From the NCBI GenBank assembly GCA_963797335.1, contig CAWCOU010000006.1:1148413-1212412 (forward strand): a DNA stretch of 64,000 nucleotides. Direction: 5' to 3'. Made by a program: the position numbers and the translations under genes. Origin of the DNA: an uncultured Gammaproteobacteria bacterium. Lineage in GTDB: Bacteria; Pseudomonadota; Gammaproteobacteria; JAURND01. Positions within the stretch are counted from its first letter, which is position 1. Every line of letters begins with the position of its first letter. This document shows, piece after piece, positions 13,870-47,096 of this stretch. The notes below the pieces were generated by a model. That model had not been told where the DNA came from. It searched no databases and saw only the letters and a list, made by a program, of their open reading frames with translations.

Positions 13870-13952
13870 TGCTCATTCCTAAGTGTAAACCTCACAATAC
13901 TTTATAACATATTATTTGAAAAATAAAGTATTGACTCTGGAATAATACCAAT

Positions 13953-14931: not shown

Positions 14932-14942
14932 GGAGAATTATT

Positions 14943-31841: not shown

Positions 31842-33871
31842 TGTCCATGCACAAACCCTTGGAAGCTTTGCTGCGACCTCCGTTAGAGTGGTATACCTCT
31901 GTTGTTGCTGTAACGGGCATCCTATTGCTTTACAGTGCATCCAACTTATTTTTAATGCCTTCAAAACTGGAGCAAATTGCCGTCGTTAGTTTATTAATTC
32001 TGGGCTTGTATCGCTTCAAGCAAGGCTACAGAGTATTCCGTTATCAACTGAATTTAAAACGAATGCCGACGTATAAAATAACTTCTAAACAAATTCCACC
32101 TGGCAGTAGAAAACTCTTTGTAGGCAAAGGTTTTTTATGGACAACGACTCATACTCAACGTCTGCGCGATTTGGACTTACCCTATAACTTGCATTATAAA
32201 AATCCCTCTTTTTTAAAGTGCTGGGCTAGACAAAAAGAACTCCGATGGGAAAGTAATCCCTTTTTGAAGAGATTTACCAAGTACTTATCAAAAAACTCAA
32301 TCTGGAATCCTTTTAGACCGTATCCAGATATTGGCGGTCAGCCCTGTATTCATGGTGTTTCCGAGCGAGAAGAGAATATTGCTATCAATTTAGCAGATCG
32401 AGCGAGTCACATGGTGGTGGTCGGCTTACCGGGAATGGGTAAAACCCGTTTTGCGGAGATACTTATCAGCCAGGATATCCGTCGAGGCGACGTGGTCATC
32501 GTTATTGACCCTAAAGGAGATTCCGATCTGCTCAAGCGTGTGTATACCGAAGCAAAATTAGCCGGTAGAGAAGAGGACTTGCTTATTTTACATCTCGGCT
32601 TCCCCCATATATCTGCTCGTTACAATCCGGTTGGAAATTTCACTCGGGTAACTGAAGTGGCAAACCGCATTTCCAATCAACTGCCCGGCTCCGGTGATTC
32701 TGCCGCATTCCGCGAATTTGGCTGGCAGTTTATTAATTCCATCGCACTTGCTCTGGTTTCAATGGGTGAGAAACCCGATTACCAGAAGATGAAATTTTAC
32801 ATCACCAAGATGGATTTGTTGTTGGAGAAATACCTTAATTTCTGGCTTCCGTCAGTGGATAACCAACTGGAAACCTGGCTGGCTTCCTATATCCGAGATA
32901 ATAGCACCAATAAGAAGGAAATCTCTCGCCTCCAAGCATTAATTGCTTACGTACAGGCACATCAACTGATTAATAATCCGGTATTTGACGATTTACACCA
33001 CGCTTGTAAGTACGACAAAGAATATTTCAGCAAAATTACTGCCTCTTTAGGCCCCCTCCTTAAGAAACTGACCACCGGCAAAGTCGCTGAATTACTCTCT
33101 CCAGATTATCAAGATACTCAGGATAATCGTCCCGTCCTGGATTGGTTACAAGTCATCCGAAATCGGCAAATTGTGTATGTTGGTTTAGACGCCTTAACGG
33201 ATAGAGAGGTATCGACTGCCGTAGGAAACGCTTTATTCGCTGACCTGGTCGCTGTTGCCGGACGCTTATACAAGCACGGCCTATACGACGGTTTTTACAA
33301 AACAGCTATGCAAAGTAAAATCCTACCGCGTATTTGCATCCATTCCGATGAATTCAATGAAATCATCGGTGATGAGTTTATTCCTTTGCTGAATAAAGGC
33401 AGAGGTGCAGGTATCACGGTGACTGCCTATACACAAACCTGGTCGGATGTGGAAGCTCGTCTGAAAGCTGCCGCCAAGGCTGGCCAAGTGGCCGGTAATT
33501 TTGGGACGGTGGTTATGTTCCGTTGCAAAGAAGCACGTACCGTTGAGATGTTGTTGGAGCAATTGCCTAAAGTGCCGATTTTACGTGTGATTCCTGCCTC
33601 TAGCAGCAGCGATACGGCGCACGGCGAAGAAGGCATATTCTTTCGCTCCAGCAATGAAGATCGGTTGAATCACAGCGAACAGCGTTTGATTGAACAAAAT
33701 GACGTATTGAACTTATCCAAGGGGCAAGCATTTGCGCTTCTGGAAGGGGGAAAGCTGTATAAATTGCGTATGCCGCTGCCTCAGCAAGAAGCGGTGGATG
33801 TCCCTGCGGATCTGGATAACATCCTACGTGTCATGCGTACACAAGCATTCCGTTTATTAAAAACTGCATAA
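31841..33871 (+). CDS. traD: TraD/VirD4-type conjugative coupling protein
   Basis: 676 aa. N-terminal TMs. Walker A VVGLPGMGKT. Walker B IHSDEF. Confidence 0.8.
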   Translation: MSMHKPLEALLRPPLEWYTSVVAVTGILLLYSASNLFLMPSKLEQIAVVSLLILGLYRFKQGYRVFRYQLNLKRMPTYKITSKQIPPGSRKLFVGKGFLWTTTHTQRLRDLDLPYNLHYKNPSFLKCWARQKELRWESNPFLKRFTKYLSKNSIWNPFRPYPDIGGQPCIHGVSEREENIAINLADRASHMVVVGLPGMGKTRFAEILISQDIRRGDVVIVIDPKGDSDLLKRVYTEAKLAGREEDLLILHLGFPHISARYNPVGNFTRVTEVANRISNQLPGSGDSAAFREFGWQFINSIALALVSMGEKPDYQKMKFYITKMDLLLEKYLNFWLPSVDNQLETWLASYIRDNSTNKKEISRLQALIAYVQAHQLINNPVFDDLHHACKYDKEYFSKITASLGPLLKKLTTGKVAELLSPDYQDTQDNRPVLDWLQVIRNRQIVYVGLDALTDREVSTAVGNALFADLVAVAGRLYKHGLYDGFYKTAMQSKILPRICIHSDEFNEIIGDEFIPLLNKGRGAGITVTAYTQTWSDVEARLKAAAKAGQVAGNFGTVVMFRCKEARTVEMLLEQLPKVPILRVIPASSSSDTAHGEEGIFFRSSNEDRLNHSEQRLIEQNDVLNLSKGQAFALLEGGKLYKLRMPLPQQEAVDVPADLDNILRVMRTQAFRLLKTA

Positions 33872-33885: not shown

Positions 33886-34977
33886 ATGAGTCACACACAC
33901 CCTGAGTTGATGCCTTGTTTACCGGGAGAAACCATTGCGCAGCAACCATTGATTCGACCCTTGCTGTTGCAATTAAAGTCCCTGGTCAGCGCACCGCCGG
34001 ATATCTACCGGGAATTATACCTTGCTACCTTCACTGCATTTGCAGAGTTCTGTCAAGCCATGCCCTTTGATATGCAGCAACCGCAACCCTATAGCTTATT
34101 ACAACGCCAATTGGAATTGGCCATAACCGCGCTGAAATTGCGTCGCGGTCGCATGTTGCCTCAAAACTCTGAAAGTGAGTTGATCGCGGAGCAGGAACCC
34201 TTGTGGACATACGCTGTTTTCACAGCTTGCTTATTCAGCGGGTTAAATCGCCTGCAAAAGGATCGTATCGTTGAATTGTACCTCAATGAGAATGAGAAAA
34301 TCGGTCAATGGTCGGTATTGGCCGGAAATCTATTTGAGCCGAAAACATTTTATACCGTCAGCGGATGGCCGACCCGAACATGGCTGGATCACTTCAGTTA
34401 TCTGGCTTTGCTGATCGGCAGAATTGTTCCTGCTCAAGCTCTGCGCTGGTTGACGACGGACTACGAAGTTTTTTTTAATTGGTGGGAAGCCATTACCATA
34501 AACCTCTGCGAAGAGAGAAAGGATGGATTATCACTATTGATAAAGCAAGCAGCGGAAGAAATAGATTATTCATTCCTTGGAGAAACGTTTAAGAAAAAAA
34601 ATGAACATACCTCTCCATCGGCGAATTCAGCGTTAGAAGACTTCATTGCATGGCTGAAAAAACAATGCGAAGAGAACGGTTGCGACTCTGAGCGCGATCT
34701 ATTGCTGCGTATCCCGGAAGGTTTTTTTATTGAATTACATCGTGTTGCCGATTTTCTACGGTGTCATCCTCAATATGGTTCTCCAGAGCATTTTGTACGC
34801 ATTCTAAAAGGGTATTTACTAAAAGAGAACGATTCCACGGTACACTGCTACCGTTCAGCTCGTTTTGAAGAACGTTTGCTTTTGCATGGGGTTATCCTAC
34901 CTGAAGACTATTTACCACCCATCGTGAAATCGCTGCCCTATCAATCCAGTTTTGTCAGTGAAATCCCATTATTATAG
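33886..34977 (+). CDS. hypothetical ICE protein downstream of the coupling protein
   Basis: 363 aa, no motif recognised. Same operon. Confidence 0.5.
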   Translation: MSHTHPELMPCLPGETIAQQPLIRPLLLQLKSLVSAPPDIYRELYLATFTAFAEFCQAMPFDMQQPQPYSLLQRQLELAITALKLRRGRMLPQNSESELIAEQEPLWTYAVFTACLFSGLNRLQKDRIVELYLNENEKIGQWSVLAGNLFEPKTFYTVSGWPTRTWLDHFSYLALLIGRIVPAQALRWLTTDYEVFFNWWEAITINLCEERKDGLSLLIKQAAEEIDYSFLGETFKKKNEHTSPSANSALEDFIAWLKKQCEENGCDSERDLLLRIPEGFFIELHRVADFLRCHPQYGSPEHFVRILKGYLLKENDSTVHCYRSARFEERLLLHGVILPEDYLPPIVKSLPYQSSFVSEIPLL

Positions 34978-34986
34978 GAGCTTACT

Positions 34987-35661
34987 ATGAAGACTACATC
35001 GGAAACCCAAGCGAAGAAAAAACGCTCGCCTTTTTATATGGAGGGTGAAATTAATTTGATTTTACATACGCGAATGACACAATCGCTATTGGCGGGCAAT
35101 TGGGAATATGGTCAGCTCGGCCTGTGGCAATTCGCCTTAAAAATACGGGACTTATGGACAGCACATCAGGCTGATGACCCTTATGCAGATTGGTTCTTTA
35201 TGAAAATCGATGAGAAGATACATCGCATTCGCGAACAAGCCCATGAACTGGAAAATTATTGCCAACAAAGACTGGCACAACTTCGCGGGTTTAGCATTAA
35301 AGTATTTGAAAACCCTCGTCCTATGCAGCTTGATCTTAAGTTTGTCACCCCATTCAGCTATATGGGAGCGGCTTTACTTCCCGAATTAGATTATCTATCA
35401 CGCCAAGCGTATACATTACGTCACATGGGGCAATTATTAGAACCGGAAAAATCGCCCTCCAAAATTGCCGCCAATATACGCCAATTATTTTCAATCCCGA
35501 TGGGTTGGCGGAAATTAGTGACGCGGCAAGACATCCTAGATAATACGCCTGCTGCACAAGAAGCCATAAGTAAGATGGGCAAAATCCCTTCAGCAATCCT
35601 AAACAAAGAGATTAAGTTTTTATTTTTGTTGGATAATATGGCCGGAACTCGTGTTAAATGA
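34987..35661 (+). CDS. hypothetical ICE protein
   Basis: 224 aa. Starts 9 nt after the previous stop. Confidence 0.5.
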   Translation: MKTTSETQAKKKRSPFYMEGEINLILHTRMTQSLLAGNWEYGQLGLWQFALKIRDLWTAHQADDPYADWFFMKIDEKIHRIREQAHELENYCQQRLAQLRGFSIKVFENPRPMQLDLKFVTPFSYMGAALLPELDYLSRQAYTLRHMGQLLEPEKSPSKIAANIRQLFSIPMGWRKLVTRQDILDNTPAAQEAISKMGKIPSAILNKEIKFLFLLDNMAGTRVK

Positions 35662-35853
35662 TTACTCGGGTACTATTCTGCAATTTATTTTATAGATTTA
35701 CGACAATACTAAATATATAGTTTATTGTAGAGTTTTTAATAAAATTTCCGCAAATTTTCTTCTGGTGAAACTGGCATTGGTATCTTAGCCGCCATATAAT
35801 AGAGCCATTGTTCTGAGAGTTGTTCATTGATAATAACTATAGGGGGACTGTTT

Positions 35854-36204
35854 ATGGATTCGTTAGAAAAAATTCGCCAACATCAGAAAGAATTTATAGA
35901 GGAAAGAAATTGGGGAGAATTTCAATCCCCCAAAAACCTAAGTATGGCTCTCGCAGCCGAAGCTGGAGAGTTATTGGAAGTTTTTATGTGGTTGAACGAG
36001 AAACAAGTTGAATTATTAAAAATAAAGTACCCACATCTTTATCAAAATGCACGAGAAGAAATTAGTGACGTTCTTATTTATCTTGTTCGCCTTGCTGACG
36101 TTCTTAATATCGATTTACTGCAAGCGGCGCTGGAGAAAATAGAAAAGAATAAAAAGAAATATCCGATAGAAAAAGCACATGAACTATTACAGTCCGTTGA
36201 TTAA
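35854..36204 (+). CDS. MazG-like nucleotide pyrophosphohydrolase (small all-alpha NTP-PPase)
   Basis: LAAEAGELLEVFMW...EEISDVLIYLVRLA is the MazG/NTP-PPase signature. ATG at 35854 follows AGGGGGA. Confidence 0.65.
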   Translation: MDSLEKIRQHQKEFIEERNWGEFQSPKNLSMALAAEAGELLEVFMWLNEKQVELLKIKYPHLYQNAREEISDVLIYLVRLADVLNIDLLQAALEKIEKNKKKYPIEKAHELLQSVD

Positions 36205-36263
36205 TGTGTTAAGAACATTTGTGGTAAAGAATTCAGTTAAAATAGATATGTTATAAGTCGTTT

Positions 36264-36375
36264 CACTGTGCGACTTTAAATCACAGTGAAGACCAGGTGT
36301 GCTACGATGAAATTTCCTTGGTCGTCGGGATTTTTCCCGATTCGTAGCTGTACCCATTTTTGGGGATTCTACTGT
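36264..36375 (+). other. conserved structured noncoding element, copy A, in a ~280-nt hairpin-rich leader upstream of ssb
   Basis: Hairpin CACTGTG-cGACTtTAAAtCa-CAGTG, then GCTACGATGAAA ... TTCGTAGCTGTACCCaTTTT..GGGGATTCTaCT. The same blocks recur at 47978..48098. Confidence 0.5.
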
Positions 36376-36536
36376 ATTTTTTGGGGCTTAGGCTCTTTCT
36401 ACTGATTCGCGGGTTATACCCGTTCCTCATCGCAATGTATCGCGATTTTCCACTTCCTGACAGGGAAACTACTCTTCCCTGTTGGGCAAGATGCGTTTCT
36501 CTTTTAGGTTTTTCATAACTTTTAAGGAGAAACATC

Positions 36537-36974
36537 ATGTCATCTTCATTGAACCTCGTTCAATTAATCGGTCACGTCGGCAAAGAACCCGAAGCCTTAA
36601 AATCAGGCAAAAACGGCTCTTTTGTTCGCGTTTCTTTGTCAACCACCAAAACGTACACTTCAGAAACCGGTGAACGTAAAGAAGTGGTTGATTGGCATAC
36701 TGTGTATTTCAACAATCGTCTTGGCAACGTAGTTAAGGAGCATTTAAACAAAGGTTCCTATATTTATGTTGCTGGCGAATTGCGCACCACAGTATGGCAG
36801 GATAAAGAGAATCAAAAACGGTACAACACCGCCGTTTATGCCTCTGAATTAAAGTTTTTGGATAAAAAGCCCATGAACAAATCATCTTCTAAGGAGTTGT
36901 CGCCTGAACAGGAGTCAATACCGGATGAAGCTGAACTCAATGCCTACGAGGAATATGCAGAAGCTAATAATTAG
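36537..36974 (+). CDS. ssb: single-stranded DNA-binding protein
   Basis: LVQLIGHVGKEPE...TEWH OB-fold pattern. Acidic C-terminal tail. Confidence 0.85.
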   Translation: MSSSLNLVQLIGHVGKEPEALKSGKNGSFVRVSLSTTKTYTSETGERKEVVDWHTVYFNNRLGNVVKEHLNKGSYIYVAGELRTTVWQDKENQKRYNTAVYASELKFLDKKPMNKSSSKELSPEQESIPDEAELNAYEEYAEANN

Positions 36975-37000
36975 CTTCAGTTTTCCGCGTAGTGAAATCA

Positions 37001-37040
37001 CCCATAGGGGAATACCCCTATGGGTATTTCCCCTTTATTT
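37001..37040 (+). terminator. rho-independent terminator CCCATAGGGG-aata-CCCCTATGGG + T-run
   Basis: Perfect 10-bp stem followed by tatttcccctttatttttttatt. Confidence 0.6.
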
Positions 37041-37061
37041 TTTTATTGATAAGGAGGAAAT

Positions 37062-37424
37062 ATGAGTAAATTTGCACTTTGTTTATCCGGTTTTGGCGAC
37101 ATAACCGGTATCGAACGAGTACCAAGAGGGATGATGATTAAGATCAAAGTTCTTTCCAAGTCCTCGGATGATATTGAACTGGAATGCCTGGTAGATCAGC
37201 CGGATTTAATTGATCGGTTGGATACGCTCAGTCAGTCCTGCTACGACAAAGAGTATGTGGTGATACATTTTATCGCTCATTACTCGCAACTTTCGTATTG
37301 TTATACAGGCTGGACGAAGCAAGATCCCGACCAAATGGTACGGCTCAAGGGTAAGTTGATGGAATTTAAGGGTTGGGTGCGAGACGGCGAATTGCCTGCT
37401 CCCTCATCACCTAAAGACATTTAA
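37062..37424 (+). CDS. orphan hypothetical protein (120 aa)
   Basis: Strong RBS aaggaggaaat. Flanked by terminators. No homology recognised. Confidence 0.5.
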   Translation: MSKFALCLSGFGDITGIERVPRGMMIKIKVLSKSSDDIELECLVDQPDLIDRLDTLSQSCYDKEYVVIHFIAHYSQLSYCYTGWTKQDPDQMVRLKGKLMEFKGWVRDGELPAPSSPKDI

Positions 37425-37448
37425 TCATCAACTTATCGGAGGTATACT

Positions 37449-37808
37449 ATGGGTTATCCAGATCAAGCTAAAACGTTATTCCAGTTAACGACGGAGTTGA
37501 CTGATGCCAAAGTGGAGATTGCAGTGAGCAAAGCCATTACCCAAGTAGTTGAACAGATCATCAATCTCAGACATGAGATTGGCGATCTTAGACACGATAT
37601 GATTGAGCGTTTTTCCAAAGTGGAAAGCCGCTTGTCTTCTGTTGAAACGGCCTTGGGTAAGCGTAATCAAATTCGCGGTGAAATTCGTACCCGTATGTTT
37701 GATTACAGCTTTAAAGCGGGATGGATTGTCGGCTTTGTTGTTTTGTCGGCAACCGTCTCGTCATTGGTTGTGCTGTTGCATTCGCTGGCTAACGTTTATA
37801 TCCATTAA
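37449..37808 (+). CDS. orphan hypothetical coiled-coil protein with C-terminal TM anchor
   Basis: 119 aa. RBS ggaggt. Confidence 0.5.
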   Translation: MGYPDQAKTLFQLTTELTDAKVEIAVSKAITQVVEQIINLRHEIGDLRHDMIERFSKVESRLSSVETALGKRNQIRGEIRTRMFDYSFKAGWIVGFVVLSATVSSLVVLLHSLANVYIH

Positions 37809-37848
37809 CGACGGAAATTTATTTTTCGTCGTTCTCAATTTTCCCACC

Positions 37849-37893
37849 GGGGAGGAATCTCCCTGCGCAGGGCATTTCCTCCTCTTTTATCCA
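37849..37893 (+). terminator. long imperfect G-rich hairpin GGAGGAAtctCCCTGC/GCAGGGcatTTCCTCC + T-run
   Basis: Read directly. Member of a local hairpin family. Confidence 0.5.
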
Positions 37894-37905
37894 GGAGGAA
37901 ATTCA

Positions 37906-38490
37906 ATGATTACTCTAACTGGCACTTTACAGGTCAGTACGCAACATTGTTTATTGCATTGCAGCTTAGGCCGCTTTGTTGTTAACGATCTGCGTTTTCA
38001 GAACATTGCAACCGGTAAATACAACGGATTTTTTGAAATTCAAAAAATCGAAGCAACCGTTCTGCAAAAATCCCAAGGGCAAATGCAAGTGAGTTTGTTG
38101 GCTGTTGTTAAGGAATTTTCCTTAAATACCATGCCAATCAATCACAAGCCTTCGCTGAAGGGAAAGACGGTTTTGCTAAATTCGCAGCTTTCACTTTTTG
38201 ATGAGGAGATCACTGAAGCTCAAGTGTCCCACTCCAAAAGAGAAGTACCTGTGGGTGTTGGCAATCCTTCTTCATCCGTTGAATTGGATGCGGTTATTCC
38301 CGAAACTACAGCAAGTACATCTCCTGTAGAACCGGAAATGCCGTCTACGGAAGGAAAACTGGTTTTTCCAGAGGTTGTTGAGCTTGACCCTACGTTATCA
38401 AGAGAACAACTGAGAAAAACCGTTGCACAATTGCAGTCCCAGGGCTACCGATTTGAAAAAAGTCGCCAACTCTGGCTAAAAGTTGCCTAA
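37906..38490 (+). CDS. orphan hypothetical protein (195 aa)
   Basis: ATG at 37906 follows CCAGGAGGAA. The track ORF from 37603 overlaps the previous gene and terminator and is rejected. Confidence 0.5.
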   Translation: MITLTGTLQVSTQHCLLHCSLGRFVVNDLRFQNIATGKYNGFFEIQKIEATVLQKSQGQMQVSLLAVVKEFSLNTMPINHKPSLKGKTVLLNSQLSLFDEEITEAQVSHSKREVPVGVGNPSSSVELDAVIPETTASTSPVEPEMPSTEGKLVFPEVVELDPTLSREQLRKTVAQLQSQGYRFEKSRQLWLKVA

Positions 38491-38509
38491 TGGCATTAAT
38501 TTTCATCAA

Positions 38510-38560
38510 CCCCAATCGGGAGAGAATATCCTCCCGCAAGGGGATGTCTCTCCTTTTAAT
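38510..38560 (+). terminator. G-rich imperfect hairpin GGGAGAGAatatCCTCCCgcaaGGGGatgTCTCTCC + T-run
   Basis: Same family as 37849 and 39181. Confidence 0.5.
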
Positions 38561-38579
38561 TTAAACATAGGAGAATAGT

Positions 38580-39116
38580 ATGAAAACTTTATCGAAACAA
38601 ACACTGCCGGATTCCTTACAAAATTTTATGTTGGGTTTCAAGTTGCGGTTTTATCGCCGGATTCAAATTGCTATTGATAATCTCAATATCTTAATGGTCG
38701 GTGCATTAGAAGGTATGGCAATGAATATGACCTCCGGCACATTGGAATACGATGTGTACTGGTGTCACATAGTCACGGCAAGTAATGTCAGAAGTATCCG
38801 TGGGAAAATCCCATTTAACGAGATACGTAAAACATTGCGCACCGGTGACACTATATGGTGTGTCAAACCAGCCATATCCATAAGTGATGAGCCTTGTGTA
38901 TTTTATCGTGCCAAGGAACGCAGTGCTTTTAAGCCAGACGGTGCTGTTGTGCTGGATGGGCAGTGTCTGTGGGGGAATTGGATATCCGACCACAAAATGC
39001 AGTTGAGTGATAACTCAACCATTACCGTTGACGGGAAACGCCTTCGTCCTCGCAATTACGAGGAAGAAAGGGTTTTGAAACTCAATTATTTGGGTTACAA
39101 GGCTTCGCGTCGATAG
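38580..39116 (+). CDS. orphan hypothetical protein (178 aa)
   Basis: RBS aggagaa. No homology recognised. Confidence 0.5.
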   Translation: MKTLSKQTLPDSLQNFMLGFKLRFYRRIQIAIDNLNILMVGALEGMAMNMTSGTLEYDVYWCHIVTASNVRSIRGKIPFNEIRKTLRTGDTIWCVKPAISISDEPCVFYRAKERSAFKPDGAVVLDGQCLWGNWISDHKMQLSDNSTITVDGKRLRPRNYEEERVLKLNYLGYKASRR

Positions 39117-39180
39117 GCATTTGTTCAAGACGACCGGGTTTTTCTTTATTGGAAAACCCTTCGTTTTATTTCCCATATGG

Positions 39181-39228
39181 GGAGAAACTTCTCCCTGCTG
39201 GGGCGTTTCTCTCTATATTTTATCTTTT
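39181..39228 (+). terminator. G-rich hairpin GGAGAAACttctCCCtgctGGGgcGTTTCTC + T-run
   Basis: Outer 7-bp stem GAGAAAC/GTTTCTC. Same family. Confidence 0.5.
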
Positions 39229-39240
39229 AGGAGAAACGCT

Positions 39241-40335
39241 ATGTTATTTCAACGACTCGCCCGAAATTTTGTCAAATTCGGGTATTTTCCAACCGACAGT
39301 GAAACGCTGAAACGTGTACTTGCTGCCATAGCTCCCTGCGAAAGCGGCACTATGGCTATTTTCGATCCCACCGCCGGTGAGGGTGTTGCCCTGGCCGAAT
39401 GCAAACATCATTTAGGTCAAGATCGCATTCTCGCCTACGGTGTCGAAATTGATGAAGAGCGTGCCTGGCACGCCAAAACACTATTGGATCACTGCATTCA
39501 CGGTGATTTGATGGATTGCATCATCAGTAAGAACAGTTTTGGGTTGGTTTTCTTTAATCCGCCTTACGGGGATTTGAGTAAAGATCAAAGCGGCGGCCAT
39601 TTCACAATGGAAGGCCGTGCGCGCCTGGAAAAATTGTTTTACCGGCGCACGGTGGGTCTGCTGCAAAAGGGTGGAGTCATCGTCATGATTGTTCCGCACT
39701 ATTCACTGGACAGTGCTTTTGCCGATTGGATATCGCGGCATTTCACAGCCGTTAAGACTTACCTGGCGCCTGAGCAACAATACAAGCAAGTAGTGTTGTT
39801 TGGGATCCGCCGGGAAGTCGATAACGTCAGTGATCGCCATGCTATACGACAGCGGTTAGCGCGTATAGGCCAGGGGGAATTACCGCCCGTCTTGCCGGAA
39901 ATTTGGCTGGATGAGTCTTATACGGTTCCTGCGGTCAAAACCGCTGTTTCCCGTTTCTGCATTAGCCGACTGGATGCTCGGCAGTTAGCGGAAATGCGGG
40001 ACAACACACCAGGCTTATGGTCGCAGTTTACGCTGCGTTTCAGCCAAGCTTTAACCGGTCAGAAACAACCACTGATGGATTTATCGCAGTGGCATTTGGC
40101 CTTAGCTTTGGCTGCCGGACAAATGTCGGGAGCGGTGACCAGCCGGGATGGGCGTACTTACCTGATTCGGGGCAGTACTTATAAAACCCAAACCGAGCGT
40201 GTCATCTGCGAACTGGATGAGGAAGGCAAGGAAACCTGGGTGCGTGTGCGGTTGGATCGATTTGTGCCGACCCTACGCGCTTTAGACATGACGCCGAAGA
40301 GTAATACCTTCGGTCAAGTGCTAACCATACGTTAA
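39241..40335 (+). CDS. orphan N6-adenine DNA methyltransferase (no cognate endonuclease)
   Basis: Motif I FDPTAGEGV. Motif IV FFNPPYG. ATG at 39241 follows AGGAGAAAC. The track start 39121 runs through the terminator. Confidence 0.7.
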   Translation: MLFQRLARNFVKFGYFPTDSETLKRVLAAIAPCESGTMAIFDPTAGEGVALAECKHHLGQDRILAYGVEIDEERAWHAKTLLDHCIHGDLMDCIISKNSFGLVFFNPPYGDLSKDQSGGHFTMEGRARLEKLFYRRTVGLLQKGGVIVMIVPHYSLDSAFADWISRHFTAVKTYLAPEQQYKQVVLFGIRREVDNVSDRHAIRQRLARIGQGELPPVLPEIWLDESYTVPAVKTAVSRFCISRLDARQLAEMRDNTPGLWSQFTLRFSQALTGQKQPLMDLSQWHLALALAAGQMSGAVTSRDGRTYLIRGSTYKTQTERVICELDEEGKETWVRVRLDRFVPTLRALDMTPKSNTFGQVLTIR

Positions 40336-40347
40336 GGAGACATCACA

Positions 40348-40950
40348 ATGACAACTGAATTTTTACAATCAGAGGAATTGTCGGGTCTGTTTATCGACGG
40401 TCTGGTCACTGACTCGGAGGACAATTTATTGTTTCTTTCCGCCTGGGGGAATGAATCTCAGGTGCAACACATACGGGCGCAATTATCTCTGCCTGTATGG
40501 GAAGGGCAATTGCGTCATTTTCAACTGCAAAATCCGAAGGGCTTACGTGTGGATACAGTCCGTTTAGATCGTAACGTACTGGAAGACATCACCGGCAGGC
40601 CGTTGGGAAATACGGTATTTTCCCATCTGACTCAGTTGTGGATTTATCATCGTTTAGCAGTCACGCCGGACAACGGCAATCATCAGGCCGTGTTGTTGCG
40701 TCAACACAGCGAAAGTGAAAAGCTGTTTAAAAAGCGTGTTTGGGAGGCGGTGCAAGTGATTTGTCCGGTTCCTTTGCATTTTGGCTGGGAACCCTTTTTA
40801 TTGGATAAATTGGTTTTAAATCATTGGGTGACTTTTTGTCGTGGGTTTCAAGTCGATGCTTGTTGTCTGAATTTTTCCGACTCTGAGGTAGAAGCTTTTA
40901 TCTCGGATCAGGTACGGACAGGGGCGTTAACTTTACCTTCGCTACAATAA
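40348..40950 (+). CDS. hypothetical protein between methyltransferase and helicase
   Basis: 200 aa. RBS aaggaga. Confidence 0.5.
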   Translation: MTTEFLQSEELSGLFIDGLVTDSEDNLLFLSAWGNESQVQHIRAQLSLPVWEGQLRHFQLQNPKGLRVDTVRLDRNVLEDITGRPLGNTVFSHLTQLWIYHRLAVTPDNGNHQAVLLRQHSESEKLFKKRVWEAVQVICPVPLHFGWEPFLLDKLVLNHWVTFCRGFQVDACCLNFSDSEVEAFISDQVRTGALTLPSLQ

Positions 40951-41066
40951 GTCATTTTTATCGTCGGTCGATAGCACCATCATCGACCGGCAATTTTTTT
41001 ACCCGTAGGGGTCGGCAACCCCTACGGGCTGCGTGACCTCTGCTTTTTACTAGACTGGAGAGAGCT

Positions 41067-43433
41067 ATGTCACTGGAAATCAATTCAATACCGACCGGAT
41101 TTAATATACCGGCCGTTACTTCAATCGTTGAGGAGGAGTTTGACGACAATCAGGTTGCATCATTAACGGATGACGATGCCAATCCACCTACAGTTCTGCC
41201 TTTATCACAATTCATCGATGATTTTGGGACGGGACTATTGCAAGCAGTGCGACGACAAAATCCACCGCTGTTTAATGGCTTGGTTAACGAGAAACGTGCA
41301 GCAGTTTTAGCCGGTTTAAAACGTCAGCCGTTTGTCGCTCAAGCACGAGTGGTGCAGGCCGTATCGCAATTGCTGCTCGATCGAAATGAACGAGCCGCAA
41401 TTGTGAACGGAGAAATGGGCGTGGGAAAAACGCAGATGGGTATTGCCATCGCCGCTGTGGCTCATGCGGAAGGTCATCATCGTACTTTGGTGCTTTGCCC
41501 GCCGCATTTGGTTTACAAGTGGCGTCGTGAAATTCTGGAGATTGTTCCTGATGCGCAAGTCGTTATTTTAAACGGCTCCGATACTTTGAAGAAATTGCAG
41601 GCTTTGGTCGGACAAGAGAAATTCTTGCCCAATTCAACGCCGGTATTTTATGTCATGGGTCGGGTAAGACTGCGTATGGGACATCACTGGAAGCTCTCAG
41701 TAGTGCCGCGGCGCGTTTACCACGCGTTAAACGCTCAGGAAGAAGACGGCGTGACTCAGCAGGTGGACAAACACAGCGTGTTGGCCAGTTGCGGCCATTG
41801 CGGTGCTTTTGTCGCGACGGTAACCGGTAAATATCTGAGGATGGAGCAAATATCCTCCGATCATAAGCTGAACTGTCTGCAATGCCGTGAGCCCTTATGG
41901 ACATTGGTACATCCTCGTCAACCTGCACCTTTAAAGGAACAGGTTCGTCAAGGTCTGTGCCAGTTGCCGGGGATTGGTAAGCAAATGGCCGAACGGCTGC
42001 TCAATCAGTTTGATGAAGGGTTATTGGCGAGCAGTTTAAGCGATAACCTCTACCAACTGGTGCAGCTGATGGACGATAACGGTCAGTTTGTGTTTTCCGA
42101 TCGGCAGGCAAAACGGATAGAGCGTGCATTAGGAAGCTTTGAGGTGAACATCGGCCAGGCGGGATATCAAGCGTCGGAGTATATCAAACGCTATCTCCCG
42201 AAAGGCTTTTTTTCACTGCTCATTGTGGACGAAGCGCATGAGTTTAAAAACGCCAGCAGCGCGCAAGGCCAGGCAATGGGTGTATTGGCCGGTCAGGTCA
42301 ATAAAGTCTTATTGCTGACGGGAACGCTGATGGGCGGTTATGCCGATGATCTCTTTTATTTGCTGTGGCGTATTTTACCCCACCGCATGATAGAAGATGG
42401 TTATGGCTACAACTGCCGCGGCTCCCTGGGTTCTGCCGCTATGGGGTTTATGCAGAAGCATGGCATCCTGAAGGAAGTCTATAAAACGACGGAGGAAGGC
42501 CATCACCGGACGGCTCGCGGTAAGCGTGAATACGTGCAGACCAGCAAAGCCCCCGGTTTCAGTCCGTTGGGTGTGGCGCGTTACCTGCTGCCTTATACTG
42601 CATTTTTAAAGCTGCGGGATTTGGAGCAGAATGTGTTGCCGGAGTATCGGGAACATTTTGTAAACGTGGCCATGACTTCAGAGCAATCGGCTTGCTATGA
42701 GGAATTGGAACGTGCGCTGAAAAACGAGCTGCGTGGTGCTTTACGCAGAGGAGACCATACCCTGTTAGGTGTGGTGCTAAACTGCCTGTTAGCCTGGCCG
42801 GATTGTTGTTTTCGTGAGGAAACGGTGGTTCATCCCAGACGAAACACGGTTTTAGCCCACGTCCCGATTGTCCTGGACGAGGATCCTTCTCCGAAAGAAC
42901 GGCAGATGTTGGAACTGTGTTTGCAGGCCAAACGTGAAGGTCGAAAGACATTGGTGTATACCATTTACACTGGTACTCGCGACACAACCGTGAGGCTGAA
43001 AACGTTGTTGGAGCAAGCCGGTCTGAAAACAGCCGTATTGCGTTCCACCGTAGCGGCAGATCGAAGGGAAGATTGGATTATGGAACAGGTTGACAAGGGG
43101 ATTGACGTTTTGGTTTGTCATCCCGAATTGGTAAAAACCGGCCTTGATCTTTTATCCTTTCCGACGATTGTGTTTATGCAGTCTGGGTATAATGTTTATA
43201 CTTTGCTGCAAGCGACACGACGCAGTTGGCGCATCGGTCAAACTCAACCGGTGGCTGTTCATTTTCTGGGTTATGAACGGACGGCGCAAATAGAGTGCCT
43301 TTCACTGATGGCCAAGAAGATTGCGGTGAGTCAATCCACCGCAGGGACAATGCCCGAAACCGGCCTTGATGTGTTGAACATGGAGGCTGAGAGTGTTGAA
43401 GTGGCGTTGGCTAAGCAGTTGCTTGAAGAGTAG
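41067..43433 (+). CDS. SNF2-family DEAH-box helicase
   Basis: Walker A GEMGVGKTQ. Motif II LLIVDEAHEFKN. Motif VI QATRRSWRIGQTQPV. Confidence 0.85.
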   Translation: MSLEINSIPTGFNIPAVTSIVEEEFDDNQVASLTDDDANPPTVLPLSQFIDDFGTGLLQAVRRQNPPLFNGLVNEKRAAVLAGLKRQPFVAQARVVQAVSQLLLDRNERAAIVNGEMGVGKTQMGIAIAAVAHAEGHHRTLVLCPPHLVYKWRREILEIVPDAQVVILNGSDTLKKLQALVGQEKFLPNSTPVFYVMGRVRLRMGHHWKLSVVPRRVYHALNAQEEDGVTQQVDKHSVLASCGHCGAFVATVTGKYLRMEQISSDHKLNCLQCREPLWTLVHPRQPAPLKEQVRQGLCQLPGIGKQMAERLLNQFDEGLLASSLSDNLYQLVQLMDDNGQFVFSDRQAKRIERALGSFEVNIGQAGYQASEYIKRYLPKGFFSLLIVDEAHEFKNASSAQGQAMGVLAGQVNKVLLLTGTLMGGYADDLFYLLWRILPHRMIEDGYGYNCRGSLGSAAMGFMQKHGILKEVYKTTEEGHHRTARGKREYVQTSKAPGFSPLGVARYLLPYTAFLKLRDLEQNVLPEYREHFVNVAMTSEQSACYEELERALKNELRGALRRGDHTLLGVVLNCLLAWPDCCFREETVVHPRRNTVLAHVPIVLDEDPSPKERQMLELCLQAKREGRKTLVYTIYTGTRDTTVRLKTLLEQAGLKTAVLRSTVAADRREDWIMEQVDKGIDVLVCHPELVKTGLDLLSFPTIVFMQSGYNVYTLLQATRRSWRIGQTQPVAVHFLGYERTAQIECLSLMAKKIAVSQSTAGTMPETGLDVLNMEAESVEVALAKQLLEE

Positions 43434-43441
43434 TTAATATA

Positions 43442-43480
43442 AATACCCCATTGACAATTTAGTTGATGGGGTATTTATTA
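43442..43480 (+). terminator. hairpin AATACCCCAT-N12-ATGGGGTATT + T-rich tail
   Basis: Perfect 10-bp stem just after the helicase stop. Confidence 0.55.
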
Positions 43481-43501
43481 TTCTGCGCTTAGTATTTTTA
43501 A

Positions 43502-44023
43502 ATGTTGTCTCCTGAAAGGAAAAAAATGTTCTCGAGTATCGTTCCGTTTATTATTACCATTATTATCGCAATTGCTGCATGGAATATTATCTATAAAGTA
43601 CTTCATAGAATAGATTCTAAGGTGACAGCATCTATTATTGTTTTGCTATCTTTATTTTTTATTTATCAGTTTTCCAATGAATTTTATGTCACATTAAATA
43701 AAATGTTTTTTCAATTTGACGCAGCTGGAGATGTGCAAGCTAAATATTCTCCCCTACGTGTCCCAAAAAATGCTACACCAGCAAGCTATTGTTCACAATT
43801 CACAGGCACAAAAGACATCATGTATGACAATAATTCAGATAGTTTTTACTGTGGAAAAATTTGGAATTTTACAAAAGATAAATACGCAAGAATACCATAT
43901 AAGCTATTGCCAAATGGCAAAGCCGAATATTGGATAGGTGTTGGTAATATAATTACTGGTAGACAGCCATATAACATTTACGAACTAAACAAATTATTTA
44001 ATGAACAGCCAGATATCCAATAG
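43502..44023 (+). CDS. hypothetical membrane-anchored protein (low-GC cargo)
   Basis: 173 aa, N-terminal TM. Alternative start at 43526. Confidence 0.45.
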   Translation: MLSPERKKMFSSIVPFIITIIIAIAAWNIIYKVLHRIDSKVTASIIVLLSLFFIYQFSNEFYVTLNKMFFQFDAAGDVQAKYSPLRVPKNATPASYCSQFTGTKDIMYDNNSDSFYCGKIWNFTKDKYARIPYKLLPNGKAEYWIGVGNIITGRQPYNIYELNKLFNEQPDIQ

Positions 44024-44951: not shown

Positions 44952-47096
44952 ATGTCAGAAGAAGATAAAACACCAGAAAAAAAAGGAAATAAAACAGTAG
45001 CGCATGAAGACATGAGTTTACTGGGAAACAATTTAGGCTACAAAACTGTTTTTCGTCATCTAATAAGAGTTGGGACAAGTATGTCTCATTTCGAGAAGCA
45101 TTTTCAGCTTAATTCAAATCATGATGATGTAGATTATCAAAACATTTTCTTCAACACATTTATTAGAATCAGTCGCACAAAGAGATCCAATTTTGATGAC
45201 CTTATGAAATTGCTGATCAATCCAATTGATCATCCAGTAAATCCATCAAATGAATTCCCAAGATCACATCCAGTTCGACGTTGGGTTTGGAAGCGTCATC
45301 AAAAGGTATGGGTGGAGACTGAAGCAGTAGTATATTTACACTCTGAAACTGTGAAGGGATTTACACCCGCATTTGCTGCGGTTATCAGAGAAATAGAAGC
45401 TATGATTTTGCCTTATAAATTTGACTCAGTTGGCATATCTATTATAAATCATAAAGGCGATAGCAACATAGTTCTGAAATATAGCTTAAAAGATCCAAAA
45501 GAATCAATTTGCATCAATCTACACCTTAACCATGCAAATGATTTTCTACCCGAGCATACTCTTTCGGATATTCAAAATATACCCCATAAATTCTTTGCAG
45601 CTGCGTCAGCAACAATTCCGAGAAACTTGCAGTCACAATGCCCATATAATGAATCTTTCGAAACTCTTACAATAATGCAGCAAATGTCTTTGGGTAATTT
45701 TAGAAAATTAAGCGTAATTAGTCACGATTTTATAAGTTTAGCAAATTTTGGCTTCGGATATTATAATAAAAAGACTAAATCTTTTAGAGGTGCAGAGCAA
45801 TGTTATTTTTTAAATCTGGAATATAATCGAAACCGACGAACGTTGATGAGGGCGCAGCGCGCCCAAAATCAGGCTGCGATGCAAAGAAGACCTAGTGTGA
45901 GCGCTATAAGCACCCTTTCAGAAGGAAATTTAGACGATGACAAAGGCAGTGCAGATGATGAACAAAGCACCAGACCTAACACACCCTTCAATGATCCAAC
46001 CTCAACATCATCTTCCAAAAAGAATTCTATAGATTTCACCAGCTCAATGACTTCACCCTTGCCTAACGTGGTTAGCAACGAAGAAATACAACTACAAAGA
46101 GATGCTGAAAACTACGAAGTCAATAAAGAAGGTGAAATAAAATTTAAAAAACCAGCACCTGTGGCCGGAACAGTAGACTCACTAGAAGACCAAACAGAAA
46201 CTCAAGATAATGAATCAGAAGATGGGGTATTTCTTGGAGAACCCACCGATACTGGCGCAGAAACTTACGGTACTGAAAAAGAAAAAATTGGCGAAAAATT
46301 TGTTCCCCCCACGGAATATGGAGTTTCTCAGTCTTCAACCCAGACGGGCGCTCCAAGCGGAACAGAATTCCATCAAGACCCATTTAATCTAATCGGCTTG
46401 ACAGGATTGCAAATCGATCCAGAATCACAAATGCCTTTACGGGGAACCGAGAATAATGAGTACTTATTGCCACAAGAGGAAACCGAAAATTTTCCAAGCA
46501 AAGAGTTAGAAACACAAGATGCAATGGGAATTAATGAGATTCAACAGCAATTTTTAGAAACAGCTGCTGAAACATCCCATGTACATAAAGGGTCTGGATT
46601 CGTTCCGGAAGGAAAACCCATATATCCTCCTCCAATGGGTTTCTTTTCCCAACCGACATATCCTATCAATCCAATCGATGCAGGAATCCATTTTTATTTT
46701 CAAGCTAAGGAGCTTTGTGAACACCATCAATACTCAGCGGCCTTACCTCTTGTCATTGAAAGTTTAGCGTTACTAGATCATAAAATTAATCACGGGAATA
46801 AATACCTGGCTTACGCATATCATTTAGCAGGGCTAATTTATTTTAATCTTGGATGTCATGCGATGCATAATAGTTTTCTCAACGAAGCACAAGAAAATTT
46901 TTCAATATGCCATAGTTATTTTTCTGGTGCTATTCAACGTTATGAAACCTTATATTCGATCGGATGCATAACCCAACCTGATAGGGATAGATACGTACAT
47001 ACAGTTATAACGCAAAATAACATAACATTAAAAAATATCGAACTGTGTAATGAAATAGTCTCAGCCCAGCCCGCAACAACCTTGTTTTTGAGATAG
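44952..47096 (+). CDS. large eukaryote-like protein with long acidic/Ser-Thr-rich disordered region and TPR-like C-terminus (effector candidate)
   Basis: 714 aa, low GC. Disordered 300-550 segment. C-terminus YLAYAYHLAGLIYFNLG. Confidence 0.5.
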   Translation: MSEEDKTPEKKGNKTVAHEDMSLLGNNLGYKTVFRHLIRVGTSMSHFEKHFQLNSNHDDVDYQNIFFNTFIRISRTKRSNFDDLMKLLINPIDHPVNPSNEFPRSHPVRRWVWKRHQKVWVETEAVVYLHSETVKGFTPAFAAVIREIEAMILPYKFDSVGISIINHKGDSNIVLKYSLKDPKESICINLHLNHANDFLPEHTLSDIQNIPHKFFAAASATIPRNLQSQCPYNESFETLTIMQQMSLGNFRKLSVISHDFISLANFGFGYYNKKTKSFRGAEQCYFLNLEYNRNRRTLMRAQRAQNQAAMQRRPSVSAISTLSEGNLDDDKGSADDEQSTRPNTPFNDPTSTSSSKKNSIDFTSSMTSPLPNVVSNEEIQLQRDAENYEVNKEGEIKFKKPAPVAGTVDSLEDQTETQDNESEDGVFLGEPTDTGAETYGTEKEKIGEKFVPPTEYGVSQSSTQTGAPSGTEFHQDPFNLIGLTGLQIDPESQMPLRGTENNEYLLPQEETENFPSKELETQDAMGINEIQQQFLETAAETSHVHKGSGFVPEGKPIYPPPMGFFSQPTYPINPIDAGIHFYFQAKELCEHHQYSAALPLVIESLALLDHKINHGNKYLAYAYHLAGLIYFNLGCHAMHNSFLNEAQENFSICHSYFSGAIQRYETLYSIGCITQPDRDRYVHTVITQNNITLKNIELCNEIVSAQPATTLFLR

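Follow-up and report, generated by a model that had tools for sequence, protein, structure and literature searches.

A repeated RNA leader predicted to fold over ribosome-binding sites in the establishment module of a PFGI-1/pKLC102/ICEclc-type integrative conjugative element

The genes between positions 35854 and 43480 of the window (the whole 64,000-nucleotide stretch of DNA that was analysed) form a conserved DNA-processing/establishment module of an integrative conjugative element (ICE) of the PFGI-1/pKLC102/ICEclc type (MPF_G, MOBH). The hairpins between these genes, which look like terminators, are on our modelling six copies of one widespread RNA leader that is predicted to fold over the ribosome-binding site of each gene it precedes. 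The motif is repeated, it sits in exact register with the start codons, its first fold (fold A) covaries, and the complementarity needed for each of its two folds is leader-specific; we suggest that the leader probably functions by locking translation.

A sequence-only reading had listed the genes of the block correctly (mazG-like, ssb, four small genes, an NPPY methyltransferase, a 200-aa protein and an SNF2 helicase) and had placed them right after a transfer operon, a location borne out by TraD (31841–33871), a short MobH relaxase (33886–34977) and a PFL_4669/AcaB-like gene (34987–35661) directly upstream. All block genes are on the + strand, as are the other features located below. Between the AcaB-like gene and mazG, an AT-rich gap contains a sigma-70-like promoter candidate (CTGGCA-18-TATAAT, 35771–35800), found by consensus scan only. 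The MazG-like nucleotide pyrophosphohydrolase (116 aa, 35854–36204; PF12643, 1.3e-13; phrog_3301 pyrophosphatase) has no leader match upstream. The module then runs in the order ssb (145 aa, 36537–36974; PF00436, 1.6e-24; TIGR00621), DUF3577-like gene, DUF3275 gene, DUF6094 methyltransferase, 200-aa partner and SNF2 helicase; the ssb, the orphan-looking methyltransferase and the helicase support the earlier view that the gene content is of an establishment type. The methyltransferase (364 aa, 39241–40335; PF19587, 2e-27) is SAM-dependent, carries FDPTAGEG and NPPY motifs, and has 1379 relatives at E ≤ 1e-10 and 423 confirmed matches in a species-representative genome collection; as had been proposed, domain and PADLOC searches detected no nuclease domain adjoining it. 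The 200-aa gene (40348–40950) begins 12 nt past the methyltransferase without a leader, and its product, for which the AF2 model is poor (pLDDT 51.9), is a conserved partner of the methyltransferase and helicase, with homologues of 31–66% identity in the related loci L002, L005, L006, L007, L008 and L009. The helicase (788 aa, 41067–43433; PF00176, PF04851, PF00271) is 59–76% identical to syntenic helicases.

The four small genes had been described as orphans with no recognisable homologues. This is incorrect: all four have syntenic homologues in related ICEs, and they are conserved backbone families and not variable cargo. The 194-aa protein (37906–38490) belongs to DUF3275, a PFGI-1-class ICE backbone family (PF11679, 2e-15), has homologues in six loci and is the only one of the four with a Pfam match. 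The 120-aa protein (37062–37424) appears to be a divergent DUF3577 member, based on DUF3577 matches in 7 of 29 representatives of its family and an hhalign comparison of the family profile with a DUF3577 protein (probability 95.8%); its AF2 model is poor (pLDDT 47.5). In pKLC102 the gene in this position, matched by position alone, has the NCBI product name 'STY4534 family ICE replication protein'. The 119-aa protein (37449–37808), a coiled-coil with a C-terminal hydrophobic segment, has homologues in L002 (74%) and L005 (51%), no Pfam family, and weak PHROG matches, the only ones among the four. The 178-aa protein (38580–39116) is basic (pI 9.5) and 28% identical to a syntenic 205-aa protein of L002, with no match in Pfam, NCBIfam, PHROG or PADLOC.

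The leader is about 70–90 nt long and combines a G-rich hairpin (P1) with a pyrimidine anti-SD, whose pairing to the Shine-Dalgarno sequence further downstream forms helix P2. Its 5' arm, X, is itself SD-like and G-rich (GGGGAGAA) and pairs with X' to give P1, closed by ACCC...GGG; the third segment is the anti-SD, UUUCUCC with leader-specific flanks, and the fourth is the real SD together with the stretch that runs to the start codon. The anti-SD can instead pair with X, to which it is also complementary, and this produces a long alternative hairpin with a conserved U-tract after it. Six translational units each have a leader: ssb, the 120-aa and 119-aa genes, the DUF3275 gene, the 178-aa gene, the methyltransferase with the 200-aa gene, and SNF2. 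We searched for it with a covariance model, R1, seeded on three DUF3275 leaders alone, and with its refined form, R2, whose E-values are rough as calibration was shortened. The ssb copy (36453–36539; R2 E = 0.0014–0.004) has P1, anti-SD GCGTTTCTCTTTT, SD AAGGAGAAAC and the ATG, with the SD paired in the MFE fold. The copy before the 120-aa gene (36998–37064; E = 1.7e-13) has P1 CACCCATAGGGG/CCCCTATGGGT, anti-SD ATTTCCCC and SD AAGGAGGAAAT, and the DUF3275 copy (37840–37908; E = 6.7e-19), a seed of R1, has P1, anti-SD CATTTCCTCCTC and SD CAGGAGGAAAT. The copy before the 178-aa gene (38508–38582; E = 1.1e-06) is also supported by predicted folds. In the methyltransferase copy (39169–39243; E = 3.3e-12), P1 (39172–39202), anti-SD (39203–39215) and SD arm (39228–39239) precede the ATG at 39241, and the MFE fold has a 12-pair SD-sequestering helix with one bulged base. 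The SNF2 copy (40999–41069; E = 0.097–0.29) has a strong P1 (ACCCGTAGGGG/CCCCTACGGG), which is kept in L001, L002, L005, L006 and L007; its weak score and poor anti-SD/SD pairing count against our model. The SDs reported earlier as strong are present and long (AAGGAGGAAAT, CAGGAGGAAAT, TAGGAGAAAC and others), and so are the G-rich hairpins with T-rich runs after them; what changes is the assignment of the hairpins, since the six are not generic: each is a copy of a single conserved leader and goes with the gene that follows it.

The leader extends well beyond this element. The DUF3275-seeded model found leaders of other genes (E down to 7e-7), and R2, run with filters off over the whole 64 kb window, gave the six leaders as the only + strand matches at E ≤ 0.1. 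In 80 loci around homologous methyltransferases of Gamma-, Beta- and Alphaproteobacteria there are 239 matches at E ≤ 0.1. The best 150 matches, drawn from these loci, the window and earlier loci and spread over 60 loci, are on the gene strand in 146 cases and end in ATG in 149; in 140 an in-frame ORF of at least 50 aa follows, with the leader ending exactly on its ATG. In pKLC102, seven of eight + strand matches end on RefSeq-annotated start codons. The downstream genes encode DUF6094 (17), DUF3275 (14), RadC (8), SNF2 (6), DUF3577 (5), SSB (3) and others, overlapping the classes reported for the radC RNA (radC genes and possible DNA methyltransferases), and the orphan radC RNA motif (RF01754) is found immediately upstream of the leader in Pseudomonas, Enterobacter and Cupriavidus. 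The leader itself is not represented by any Rfam family.

In all six window leaders the SD is base-paired in the MFE fold (z −2.6 to −7.3). Across 34 hand-trimmed leaders from seven loci, every SD is paired at least in part and 26 have a fully paired core; when the SD is held open the anti-SD re-pairs with the P1 5' arm in most of the 34. Opening the SD is predicted to cost 4.3–10.4 kcal/mol in the six leaders, whereas the 50 remaining genes of the window have a median cost of 2.7 kcal/mol (Mann-Whitney p = 8e-4). Counted on alignments fitted to the model, which favours its structure, paired cells reach 90.5% in 25 sequences (76.8% when shuffled; double-sided changes at 16 of 21 pairs) and 90.8% in 150 sequences (70.2% when shuffled; 20 of 21 pairs), values attained by 0 of 500 shuffles in each set. 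With 150 sequences, compensatory cells number 667 against 220 in shuffles, and controls with the 3' partner shifted by 1–3 columns give 50–66%. Duplexes between segments of the same leader are more stable than cross pairs for both anti-SD:SD (−11.2 versus −7.5 kcal/mol) and X:anti-SD (−12.6 versus −8.4 kcal/mol; n = 146 and p ≤ 2e-4 for each). Of the controls, X:SD shows no significant difference (p = 0.43, n = 146) and X':SD a marginal one (−5.2 versus −4.9 kcal/mol, p = 0.007, n = 146; not significant at n = 24). Anti-SD flanks rank their own SD-to-ATG bases within the top 10% for 96 of 146 leaders.

We suggest that in fold A, P1 together with P2 would occlude the ribosome-binding site, and that in fold B, a single long hairpin of X with the anti-SD ahead of a U-rich tract, the SD would be free and the RNA would resemble an intrinsic terminator. 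By default the leader would keep the block genes translationally silent, with transcription attenuated; co-ordinated expression would follow either from opening of P2 or from a fold B that forms but does not terminate transcription. The trigger may be co-transcriptional kinetics with capture by the ribosome or S1, an RNA-binding or antitermination factor encoded by the ICE or the host, or sensing by the upstream radC RNA domain at leaders that have one. When transcripts are cut after the anti-SD, fold B differs little in energy from P1 (median −1.7 kcal/mol), and the 8 nt past fold B contain 4.7 U, versus 1.5 expected, even where the locus has 55–75% GC. In full-length leaders fold A is favoured by a median of about 7 kcal/mol, so fold B may be merely transient. 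An efficient fold B terminator would mean that the SD-free state yields no downstream mRNA, which counts against the logic of the model.

Such a leader is compatible with the proposal that the block enters first, as a leading region, and that its small proteins are anti-defence factors, which we regard as a tentative possibility. Orphan methyltransferases and SSBs are typical of plasmid leading regions (PMC11541004), so the gene content, including the MazG-like protein, fits, as does the adjoining relaxase operon; a default-off, co-ordinately released leader would suit a pulse of expression on entry. The block is also homologous to "GI-Hotspot 1" of PAPI-1-type islands, the interval bounded by DUF3275 and DUF2859 that is reported to be enriched in anti-defence and anti-CRISPR genes (PMC12629846). 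However, oriT was not located, and with all genes on the + strand, transcription from the entering single strand is expected only if oriT lies downstream of SNF2 (orientation rule, PMC11541004), that is, beyond 43433, where nothing is conserved. The only candidate there is a 17-bp perfect hairpin (43439–43478), 6 nt past the SNF2 stop; it shows no conservation in the relatives compared and is also a candidate end-of-operon terminator. The place of the module also differs between ICE lineages: in the window, L002 and L010 it follows traD-traI, and in L008, L009 and pKLC102 it precedes the T4SS genes. Finally, the small proteins include conserved backbone families (DUF3577, DUF3275), and a defence-model search of all four gave zero matches in PADLOC, the sole defence-related library searched.

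We consider it unlikely that the hairpins are merely intrinsic terminators or mRNA-stabilising stem-loops insulating the small genes, with the SD complementarity a by-product of a pyrimidine-rich 3' arm or U-tract. Terminator-like sites are enriched between 33 and 45 kb (24 versus 12.9 ± 3.9 in shuffles), and fold B is indeed a long GC-rich hairpin with a U-rich tract that is kept in GC-rich hosts, so the earlier description of terminators has a real basis in the alternative fold, which looks like one; as a whole, the hairpins are best interpreted as belonging to regulatory leaders of the genes that follow. The register kept with the downstream start, the covariation of the anti-SD flanks with the SD-to-ATG bases of the same leader, and double-sided changes at 10 of 10 P2 pairs count against simple terminators. 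Nor is each small gene sealed by its own hairpin: the 24-nt gap between the 120-aa and 119-aa genes has none and the 119-aa gene no leader of its own, and the element is likewise missing past the methyltransferase, spacings of 12–24 nt that are consistent with translational coupling. We note that three intergenic regions also hold a separate, conventional terminator-like hairpin upstream of P1, which counts against our model: 37807–37833, overlapping the 119-aa stop codon, and 39136–39159, past the 178-aa gene (both from terminator scan and fold), and 40963–40991, where a 10-bp stem and then T7 separate the 200-aa gene from the SNF2 leader (from fold), an arrangement also seen in L001.

It is less likely still that the methyltransferase, 200-aa protein and SNF2 helicase are a DISARM-, MADS- or Dpd-like defence system carried as ICE cargo instead of establishment or anti-restriction genes. 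The methyltransferase has a partial PADLOC match to mad2 (8.4e-16) and the helicase has partial matches to the ZorD, DpdE and DrmD helicase models (1e-15 to 1e-10), but these matches span only generic methyltransferase and helicase cores and fall far under the NCBIfam family cut-offs. Searches of the window block gave no DrmA, DrmB, DrmC, nuclease or PLD partner, and the trio is backbone in related ICE loci of diverse Proteobacteria, in fixed synteny with ssb and DUF3275.

That the structures act in the ssDNA of the transferred strand, as single-strand origins, priming signals or Frpo-type hairpin promoters for early expression in the recipient, is very improbable: the gene types match those that plasmid leading regions express early from ssDNA promoters (PMC11541004), the minus strand of 36195–36460 folds as DNA better than shuffles (z = −3.3), and the STAXI motif, found near similar DNA-related genes, has been discussed as possibly acting as ssDNA, but the stems are only 5–12 bp, with nothing like a duplex of about 30 bp with −35 and −10 boxes, the defining partner of the motif is the SD-to-ATG stretch of mRNA, and the coding-sense strand cannot be the template for these genes. 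Wobbles favour the + (mRNA-sense) strand (184 G.U/U.G pairs versus 117 A.C/C.A cells, with three G.U pairs in one helix of the L010 ssb leader), a moderate excess that does not by itself prove the strand of action. The multi-hairpin region noted before ssb does exist, in the 332-nt intergenic region 36205–36536, although its hairpins are of 5–9 bp and do not resemble the long hairpin of an Frpo-type promoter. Its structured part (36248–36452), which has no Rfam match, is predicted to contain pseudoknot-like GTCG/CGAC and CACTGTG/CACAGTG pairings, an ACCAGG/CCTTGGT hairpin and about five more short hairpins, and it is kept in L010 (9380–9592), L002 and L006, where the differences include compensatory changes and, on the + strand, G.U wobbles.

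The G-rich hairpins and T-runs of the block at 35854-43480 (+ strand), which the sequence-only reading took for terminators closing each small gene, share a single design and are found before ssb, the 120-aa gene, the DUF3275 gene, the 178-aa gene, the methyltransferase gene and the SNF2 gene. The design runs ACCC-nnn-GGGGAGAA (an SD-like 5′ arm, X), a loop and UUCUCCC-nnn-GGG (X′), the two arms forming hairpin P1; between P1 and the ATG lie a pyrimidine stretch, a spacer rich in U and a long SD, in that order. Predicted RNA folds pair the pyrimidine stretch (anti-SD) with the SD as helix P2 in each of the six window leaders, and the architecture recurs with other sequences in all related loci (fetched via methyltransferase homologues), GC-rich ones included. 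The predicted cost of opening the SD is 4.3–10.4 kcal/mol for the six leaders against a median of 2.7 kcal/mol for other window genes (p = 8e-4). In the minimum free energy folds of 34 hand-trimmed leaders, pairing covers at least part of the SD in all 34 and its whole core in 26; with the SD held open in these sequences, the anti-SD usually switches to the 5′ arm of P1, and one long hairpin results. Each leader can thus be drawn as fold A, in which P1 and P2 occlude the SD, or as fold B, in which the X:anti-SD hairpin is followed by a U-tract and the SD is free.

MAFFT alignments of such heterogeneous leaders were out of register; we therefore seeded a covariance model on three orthologous DUF3275 leaders and iterated it. 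An automatic duplex-based parser was dropped, having mis-assigned the arms in about one-third of leaders. The model from the three DUF3275 leaders alone detected leaders of other genes, and 11 hits then served to build a second model, R2. With filters off, the six leaders are the sole + strand matches of R2 in the 64 kb at E ≤ 0.1; on the minus strand, matches in a similar score range (E ≤ 0.05) overlap these palindromic hairpins, with lower scores. A search of the genome-collection contigs with the single methyltransferase protein gave no match, and one with the methyltransferase alignment confirmed 423 matches and yielded 80 gamma-, beta- and alphaproteobacterial loci, in which R2 has 239 matches at E ≤ 0.1. 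The best 150 R2 matches, drawn from the 80 loci, the window and the earlier loci, span 60 loci with up to 8 per locus (up to 12 at E ≤ 0.1); 146 of the 150 have the orientation of the gene, the match closes on an ATG in 149, and an ORF of 50 aa or more starts there in 140. The genes that follow the leader encode DUF6094 (17), DUF3275 (14), RadC (8), SNF2 (6), DUF3577 (5), SSB (3) and several other DUF proteins, and about half have no Pfam family. The leader occurs in many proteobacterial species, at 60 of 87 sampled loci.

Of the cells counted at the model's pairs, 90.8% are paired, compared with 70.2% after shuffling and 50–66% when the 3′ partner is shifted by 1–3 columns; double-sided changes occur at 20 of 21 pairs, and none of 500 shuffles reached the observed values. 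As the alignments behind these pair counts are fitted to the model, we added an alignment-light test in which duplex energies within a leader are compared with those formed with other leaders' segments (n = 146; n = 24). In the set of 146, a leader's own partner is favoured for anti-SD:SD (−11.2 versus −7.5 kcal/mol), X:anti-SD (−12.6 versus −8.4 kcal/mol) and P1 (−11.6 versus −8.6 kcal/mol), each with p ≤ 2e-4. The control duplex X:SD shows no significant difference, and X′:SD is marginal (−5.2 versus −4.9, p = 0.007) and not significant in the set of 24. Both mutually exclusive folds are thus kept leader by leader. The model also looks useful for correcting start codons: in locus L007 the leader at 1690-1772 closes with an ATG at 1770, and the public gene call puts the start of the methyltransferase at 1728. 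A helicase remnant in L008 (15020-15313), a 74-aa ORF that corresponds to the SNF2 N-terminus only (65% over 34 aa), still has a high-scoring leader (62 bits).

The U-run might be no more than AT-rich composition, but this was rejected, since the U enrichment persists at 55–75% GC. In loci of that composition, the 8 nt after the fold B hairpin hold 4.7 U against 1.5 expected, and UUU lies within 6 nt of the hairpin in 69% of cases. In transcripts that end after the anti-SD, the energies of the fold B hairpin and of P1 are almost equal (median −1.7 kcal/mol). The predicted alternative fold therefore has the look of a genuine intrinsic terminator; to this extent the earlier description of hairpin plus T-run terminators stands. 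What has to be changed is their assignment, because the leader is locked to the downstream start codon and the 3′ arm of the fold B hairpin also pairs with the SD; the element is best read as part of the gene that follows and not as a gene-end terminator. Separate terminator-like hairpins do lie upstream of P1 in three intergenic regions (37807-37833, 39136-39159 and 40963-40991, the last with T7). P1 would be a potential antiterminator, and in read-through RNA the 3′ arm of the terminator would mask the SD. Any account of which fold permits expression, or of what tips the leader from one to the other, is inference. Control of the CsrA/Rsm type was considered; the GGA motifs sit in stems rather than loops, and we regard it as one candidate trigger only.

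Among known systems, the leader can be compared with the SD-sequestering expression platforms of translational riboswitches, RNA thermometers and terminator/antiterminator attenuators. It shares with them an anti-SD:SD helix, a competing upstream helix and a mutually exclusive alternative fold, whose hairpin carries a U-tract. It differs from them in having no aptamer-like conserved core, leader peptide or known ligand, in that the competitor pairs segments 1 and 3 (SD mimic and anti-SD) instead of 2 and 3, and in being repeated before successive genes of one module. Nor did the catalogued RNA families account for it. At threshold, Rfam 15 places no family in the window, L002 or L005-L009, and lax searches gave chance-level matches only (in the window, caiA at 27 bits, GibS at 28 bits and snoU18). 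We regard the conserved two-state leader as a new form of SD-sequestering/attenuator control, one that no catalogue lists, with a link to the orphan radC RNA (RF01754).

The link is not visible in the window itself, where RF01754 has no match that reaches its gathering score (40 bits), and where a relaxed cut-off of E ≤ 10 gave none in 35600-43600 or 36200-36470 either. It comes from the relatives, in which we found 13 matches of 58–117 bits in L045, L048, L061 and L067 and three in pKLC102 (L091), the bearers being loci of Pseudomonas, Enterobacter and Cupriavidus and pKLC102. In these five loci most radC matches have an R2 leader about 10–45 nt to their 3′ side, or overlap one through their last hairpin. 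Four copies are R2-negative (L045 1461-1603 and 5826-5976, L061 2019-2159 and L067 4425-4578); three of them are followed by a leader recognisable by eye, and none is discernible after L045 1461-1603. At the gathering score the motif is absent from L002, L005-L009, L019, L033 and L082 (L001 and L010 lay outside the scan), and L019, L033 and L082 have many leaders. The shared element is therefore the leader, to which a radC domain may be added on the 5′ side. Both are multi-copy, cis-regulatory 5′-UTR elements of proteobacterial ICEs, and both stand before radC and DNA methyltransferase genes; radC RNA has also been described upstream of integrase and anti-restriction genes (Weinberg et al. 2010, PMC2864571). 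The leaders, too, occupy 5′-UTRs of DNA-acting genes (ssb, DUF3577-like, DUF3275, methyltransferase and SNF2). The radC model, with 149 positions and four hairpins, lacks the anti-SD/SD part that the leader has. Its published description gives no mechanism, and we found no later functional work in the literature.

A broader reading is that the leader is a family-wide "establishment switch" of ICEs, silencing up to 12 genes per element that are released jointly by a transfer- or entry-linked signal, and that it is also the expression platform of radC RNA. Such a switch would combine attenuation with SD masking, the genes held silent would be of DNA-handling and anti-defence type, and the radC motif would act as a sensor domain before some copies. 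We put this forward tentatively and consider it rather unlikely as a whole. The leader gives a concrete, testable mechanism for co-ordinated control of ssb, methyltransferase and radC-type genes, and offers a functional handle on radC RNA, uncharacterised since 2010. ICEs of the pKLC102/PAPI-1/ICEclc type are vehicles of virulence, resistance and catabolic genes, and the covariance model marks the precise start codons of their small genes, including anti-defence candidates of the PAPI-1 hotspot.

The window (about 40% GC) carries the features of an ICE of the PFGI-1/pKLC102/ICEclc class (MPF_G, MOBH). The MPF_G-type conjugation system at 17-31 kb includes the T4SS proteins TIGR03744 (TraC), TIGR03749, TIGR03752, TIGR03755 and TIGR03756, all above the NCBIfam cut-off, and is followed by TraD (31841-33871; TIGR03754, 824 bits), a short MobH relaxase (33886-34977; below cut-off, 83 versus 200 bits) and a PFL_4669/AcaB-like gene (34987-35661; 110.6 versus a cut-off of 110.7). 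The relaxase has 363 aa and the TraI_2 domain only; it is either truncated or split, or a member of a compact subfamily, and its relatives are short too (373 aa in L002, 249 aa in L010). A tRNA search of the window found none. The module genes lie directly downstream of the AcaB-like gene, all on the + strand. Pfam, NCBIfam, PHROG and PADLOC scans confirmed the MazG-like pyrophosphatase, the SSB, the DUF6094 methyltransferase (in which FDPTAGEG and NPPY motifs are visible) and the SNF2 helicase.

The four small genes had been called orphans, a description that no longer holds. The 194-aa protein (37906-38490) is a DUF3275 protein (PF11679; 57.5 bits against a cut-off of 25). The 120-aa protein has no Pfam match itself, yet its family comprises 29 representatives at 50% identity, seven of which match DUF3577 (PF12101; best 1e-6), and the family profile matches a bona fide DUF3577 protein of L008 with 95.8% probability. 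Syntenic homologues exist for the 119-aa coiled-coil/TM protein and the 178-aa protein, as they do for the 200-aa protein. For the 120-aa and 200-aa proteins AF2 yielded no usable model (pLDDT 47.5 and 51.9), as their alignments, of 5 and 3 sequences, lack depth. In related loci the order is [radC]-ssb-DUF3577-like-x-DUF3275-(x)-methyltransferase-200 aa-SNF2, and the same module is present in pKLC102 of P. aeruginosa; it is therefore a known backbone of elements of the PFGI-1/pKLC102/GGI type (PMC3334931). In the gonococcal genetic island (GGI), ssbB-topB-yeh-yegB-yegA form an operon with yef (DUF3577) adjacent (PMC3334931). Window, GGI and the PAPI-1/pKLC102 backbone with its 'GI-Hotspot 1' have in common an ICE-type SSB, DUF3577 (DUF3577-like in the window), DUF3275, the DUF6094 methyltransferase and a helicase; the gene order is shared, and the T4SS genes lie on that strand too. 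Unlike the others, the window has no topB, parB or radC, and its module adjoins the 3′ end of the traD, relaxase and AcaB-like gene run, whereas in those elements it is upstream of the T4SS genes. The order of methyltransferase and small partner seems to vary: in L009 the 200-aa homologue is upstream of the methyltransferase, not downstream, and in pKLC102 (13360-15440) a 201-aa hypothetical gene with a leader precedes the DUF6094 gene, annotated as 481 aa. Group II introns occur in or beside the module in L001 (5526-7403, splitting the SNF2 gene), L033 (14551-16966) and L045 (2620-2769).

The structured leader that had been noticed before ssb was borne out, in the form of a pseudoknot-like element (GTCG..CACTGTG..CGAC..CACAGTG), a hairpin (ACCAGG/CCTTGGT) and further short hairpins within the 332-nt gap 5′ of the gene. 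L002, L006 and L010 have the same structures, with compensatory and G.U changes; the covariation, from two to four sequences, is thin. In L010 (9380-9800) ssb is missing and the structured upstream region is kept, about 75% identical to window 36248-36466 and followed by a leader and the 120-aa homologue. By Rfam this region is neither STAXI nor radC. STAXI (RF01728) is likewise pseudoknot-containing and found near ssb and anti-restriction genes; however, it is a tandem repeat of one pseudoknot reported from Enterobacteriales, unlike the region here, and has no match at E ≤ 10. Another parallel is the Frpo/ssi single-strand promoters of plasmid leading regions, also structured non-coding DNA upstream of ssb and other establishment genes in a conjugative element. 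Frpo of the F plasmid is a long imperfect hairpin that rebuilds −35/−10 boxes on the transferred strand (PMC11541004). Here, minus-strand DNA folds of 36195-36460 and 35655-35860 (the latter with z = +0.9) gave only 5–9 bp hairpins, and the short hairpins of the module are tied to the mRNA SD.

The proposal that the block is a leading region rich in anti-defence genes fared unevenly. The block probably does not encode a DISARM or MADS-type defence system: in Pfam, NCBIfam and PADLOC scans the methyltransferase and helicase cores gave only partial matches, and no other component (DrmA, DrmB (DUF1998), DrmC or the MADS core genes) was found in it. In favour of the proposal, the DUF3275-DUF2859 interval of PAPI-1 islands has been reported as an anti-defence hotspot (PMC12629846); against it, the small proteins have no match in PADLOC, the sole defence-related library searched. 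The observation itself was partly confirmed and its interpretation partly supported. Our search located no oriT. The AT-rich gap at 35662-35853 folds poorly, and L002 and L010 have nothing conserved that corresponds to it; a 17-bp perfect hairpin after SNF2 (43439-43478) is not conserved in relatives, and the ICEclc papers examined do not give the positions of its two oriT regions. With every gene on the + strand, the rule on the orientation of leading genes implies that early transcription from the entering strand would need an oriT to the right of SNF2 (downstream of 43433). Lineages differ in where the module lies relative to the relaxase and T4SS, and megablast of the block against plasmids gave no match.

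To the left of the block are genes for ParA (6840-7877) and a P4-type integrase (9624-10844). To its right, KfrA_N (47329-47922) and DUF551 (48370-48816) genes indicate that the element probably reaches beyond 43.5 kb. Between these and the block, 44952-47096 encodes a 714-aa protein with a long, low-complexity acidic middle rich in Ser, Thr and Glu and no Pfam family; beyond 44 kb the GC content drops to about 37%. The presence of ankyrin, LRR and NACHT proteins near related loci suggests a host-associated (perhaps amoeba-associated) gammaproteobacterium. Further right, a DDE_Tnp_1 transposase (57351-58466; an IS element) lies among apparently chromosomal genes, including those for an AMP-binding/PP-binding enzyme and a PAS histidine kinase.
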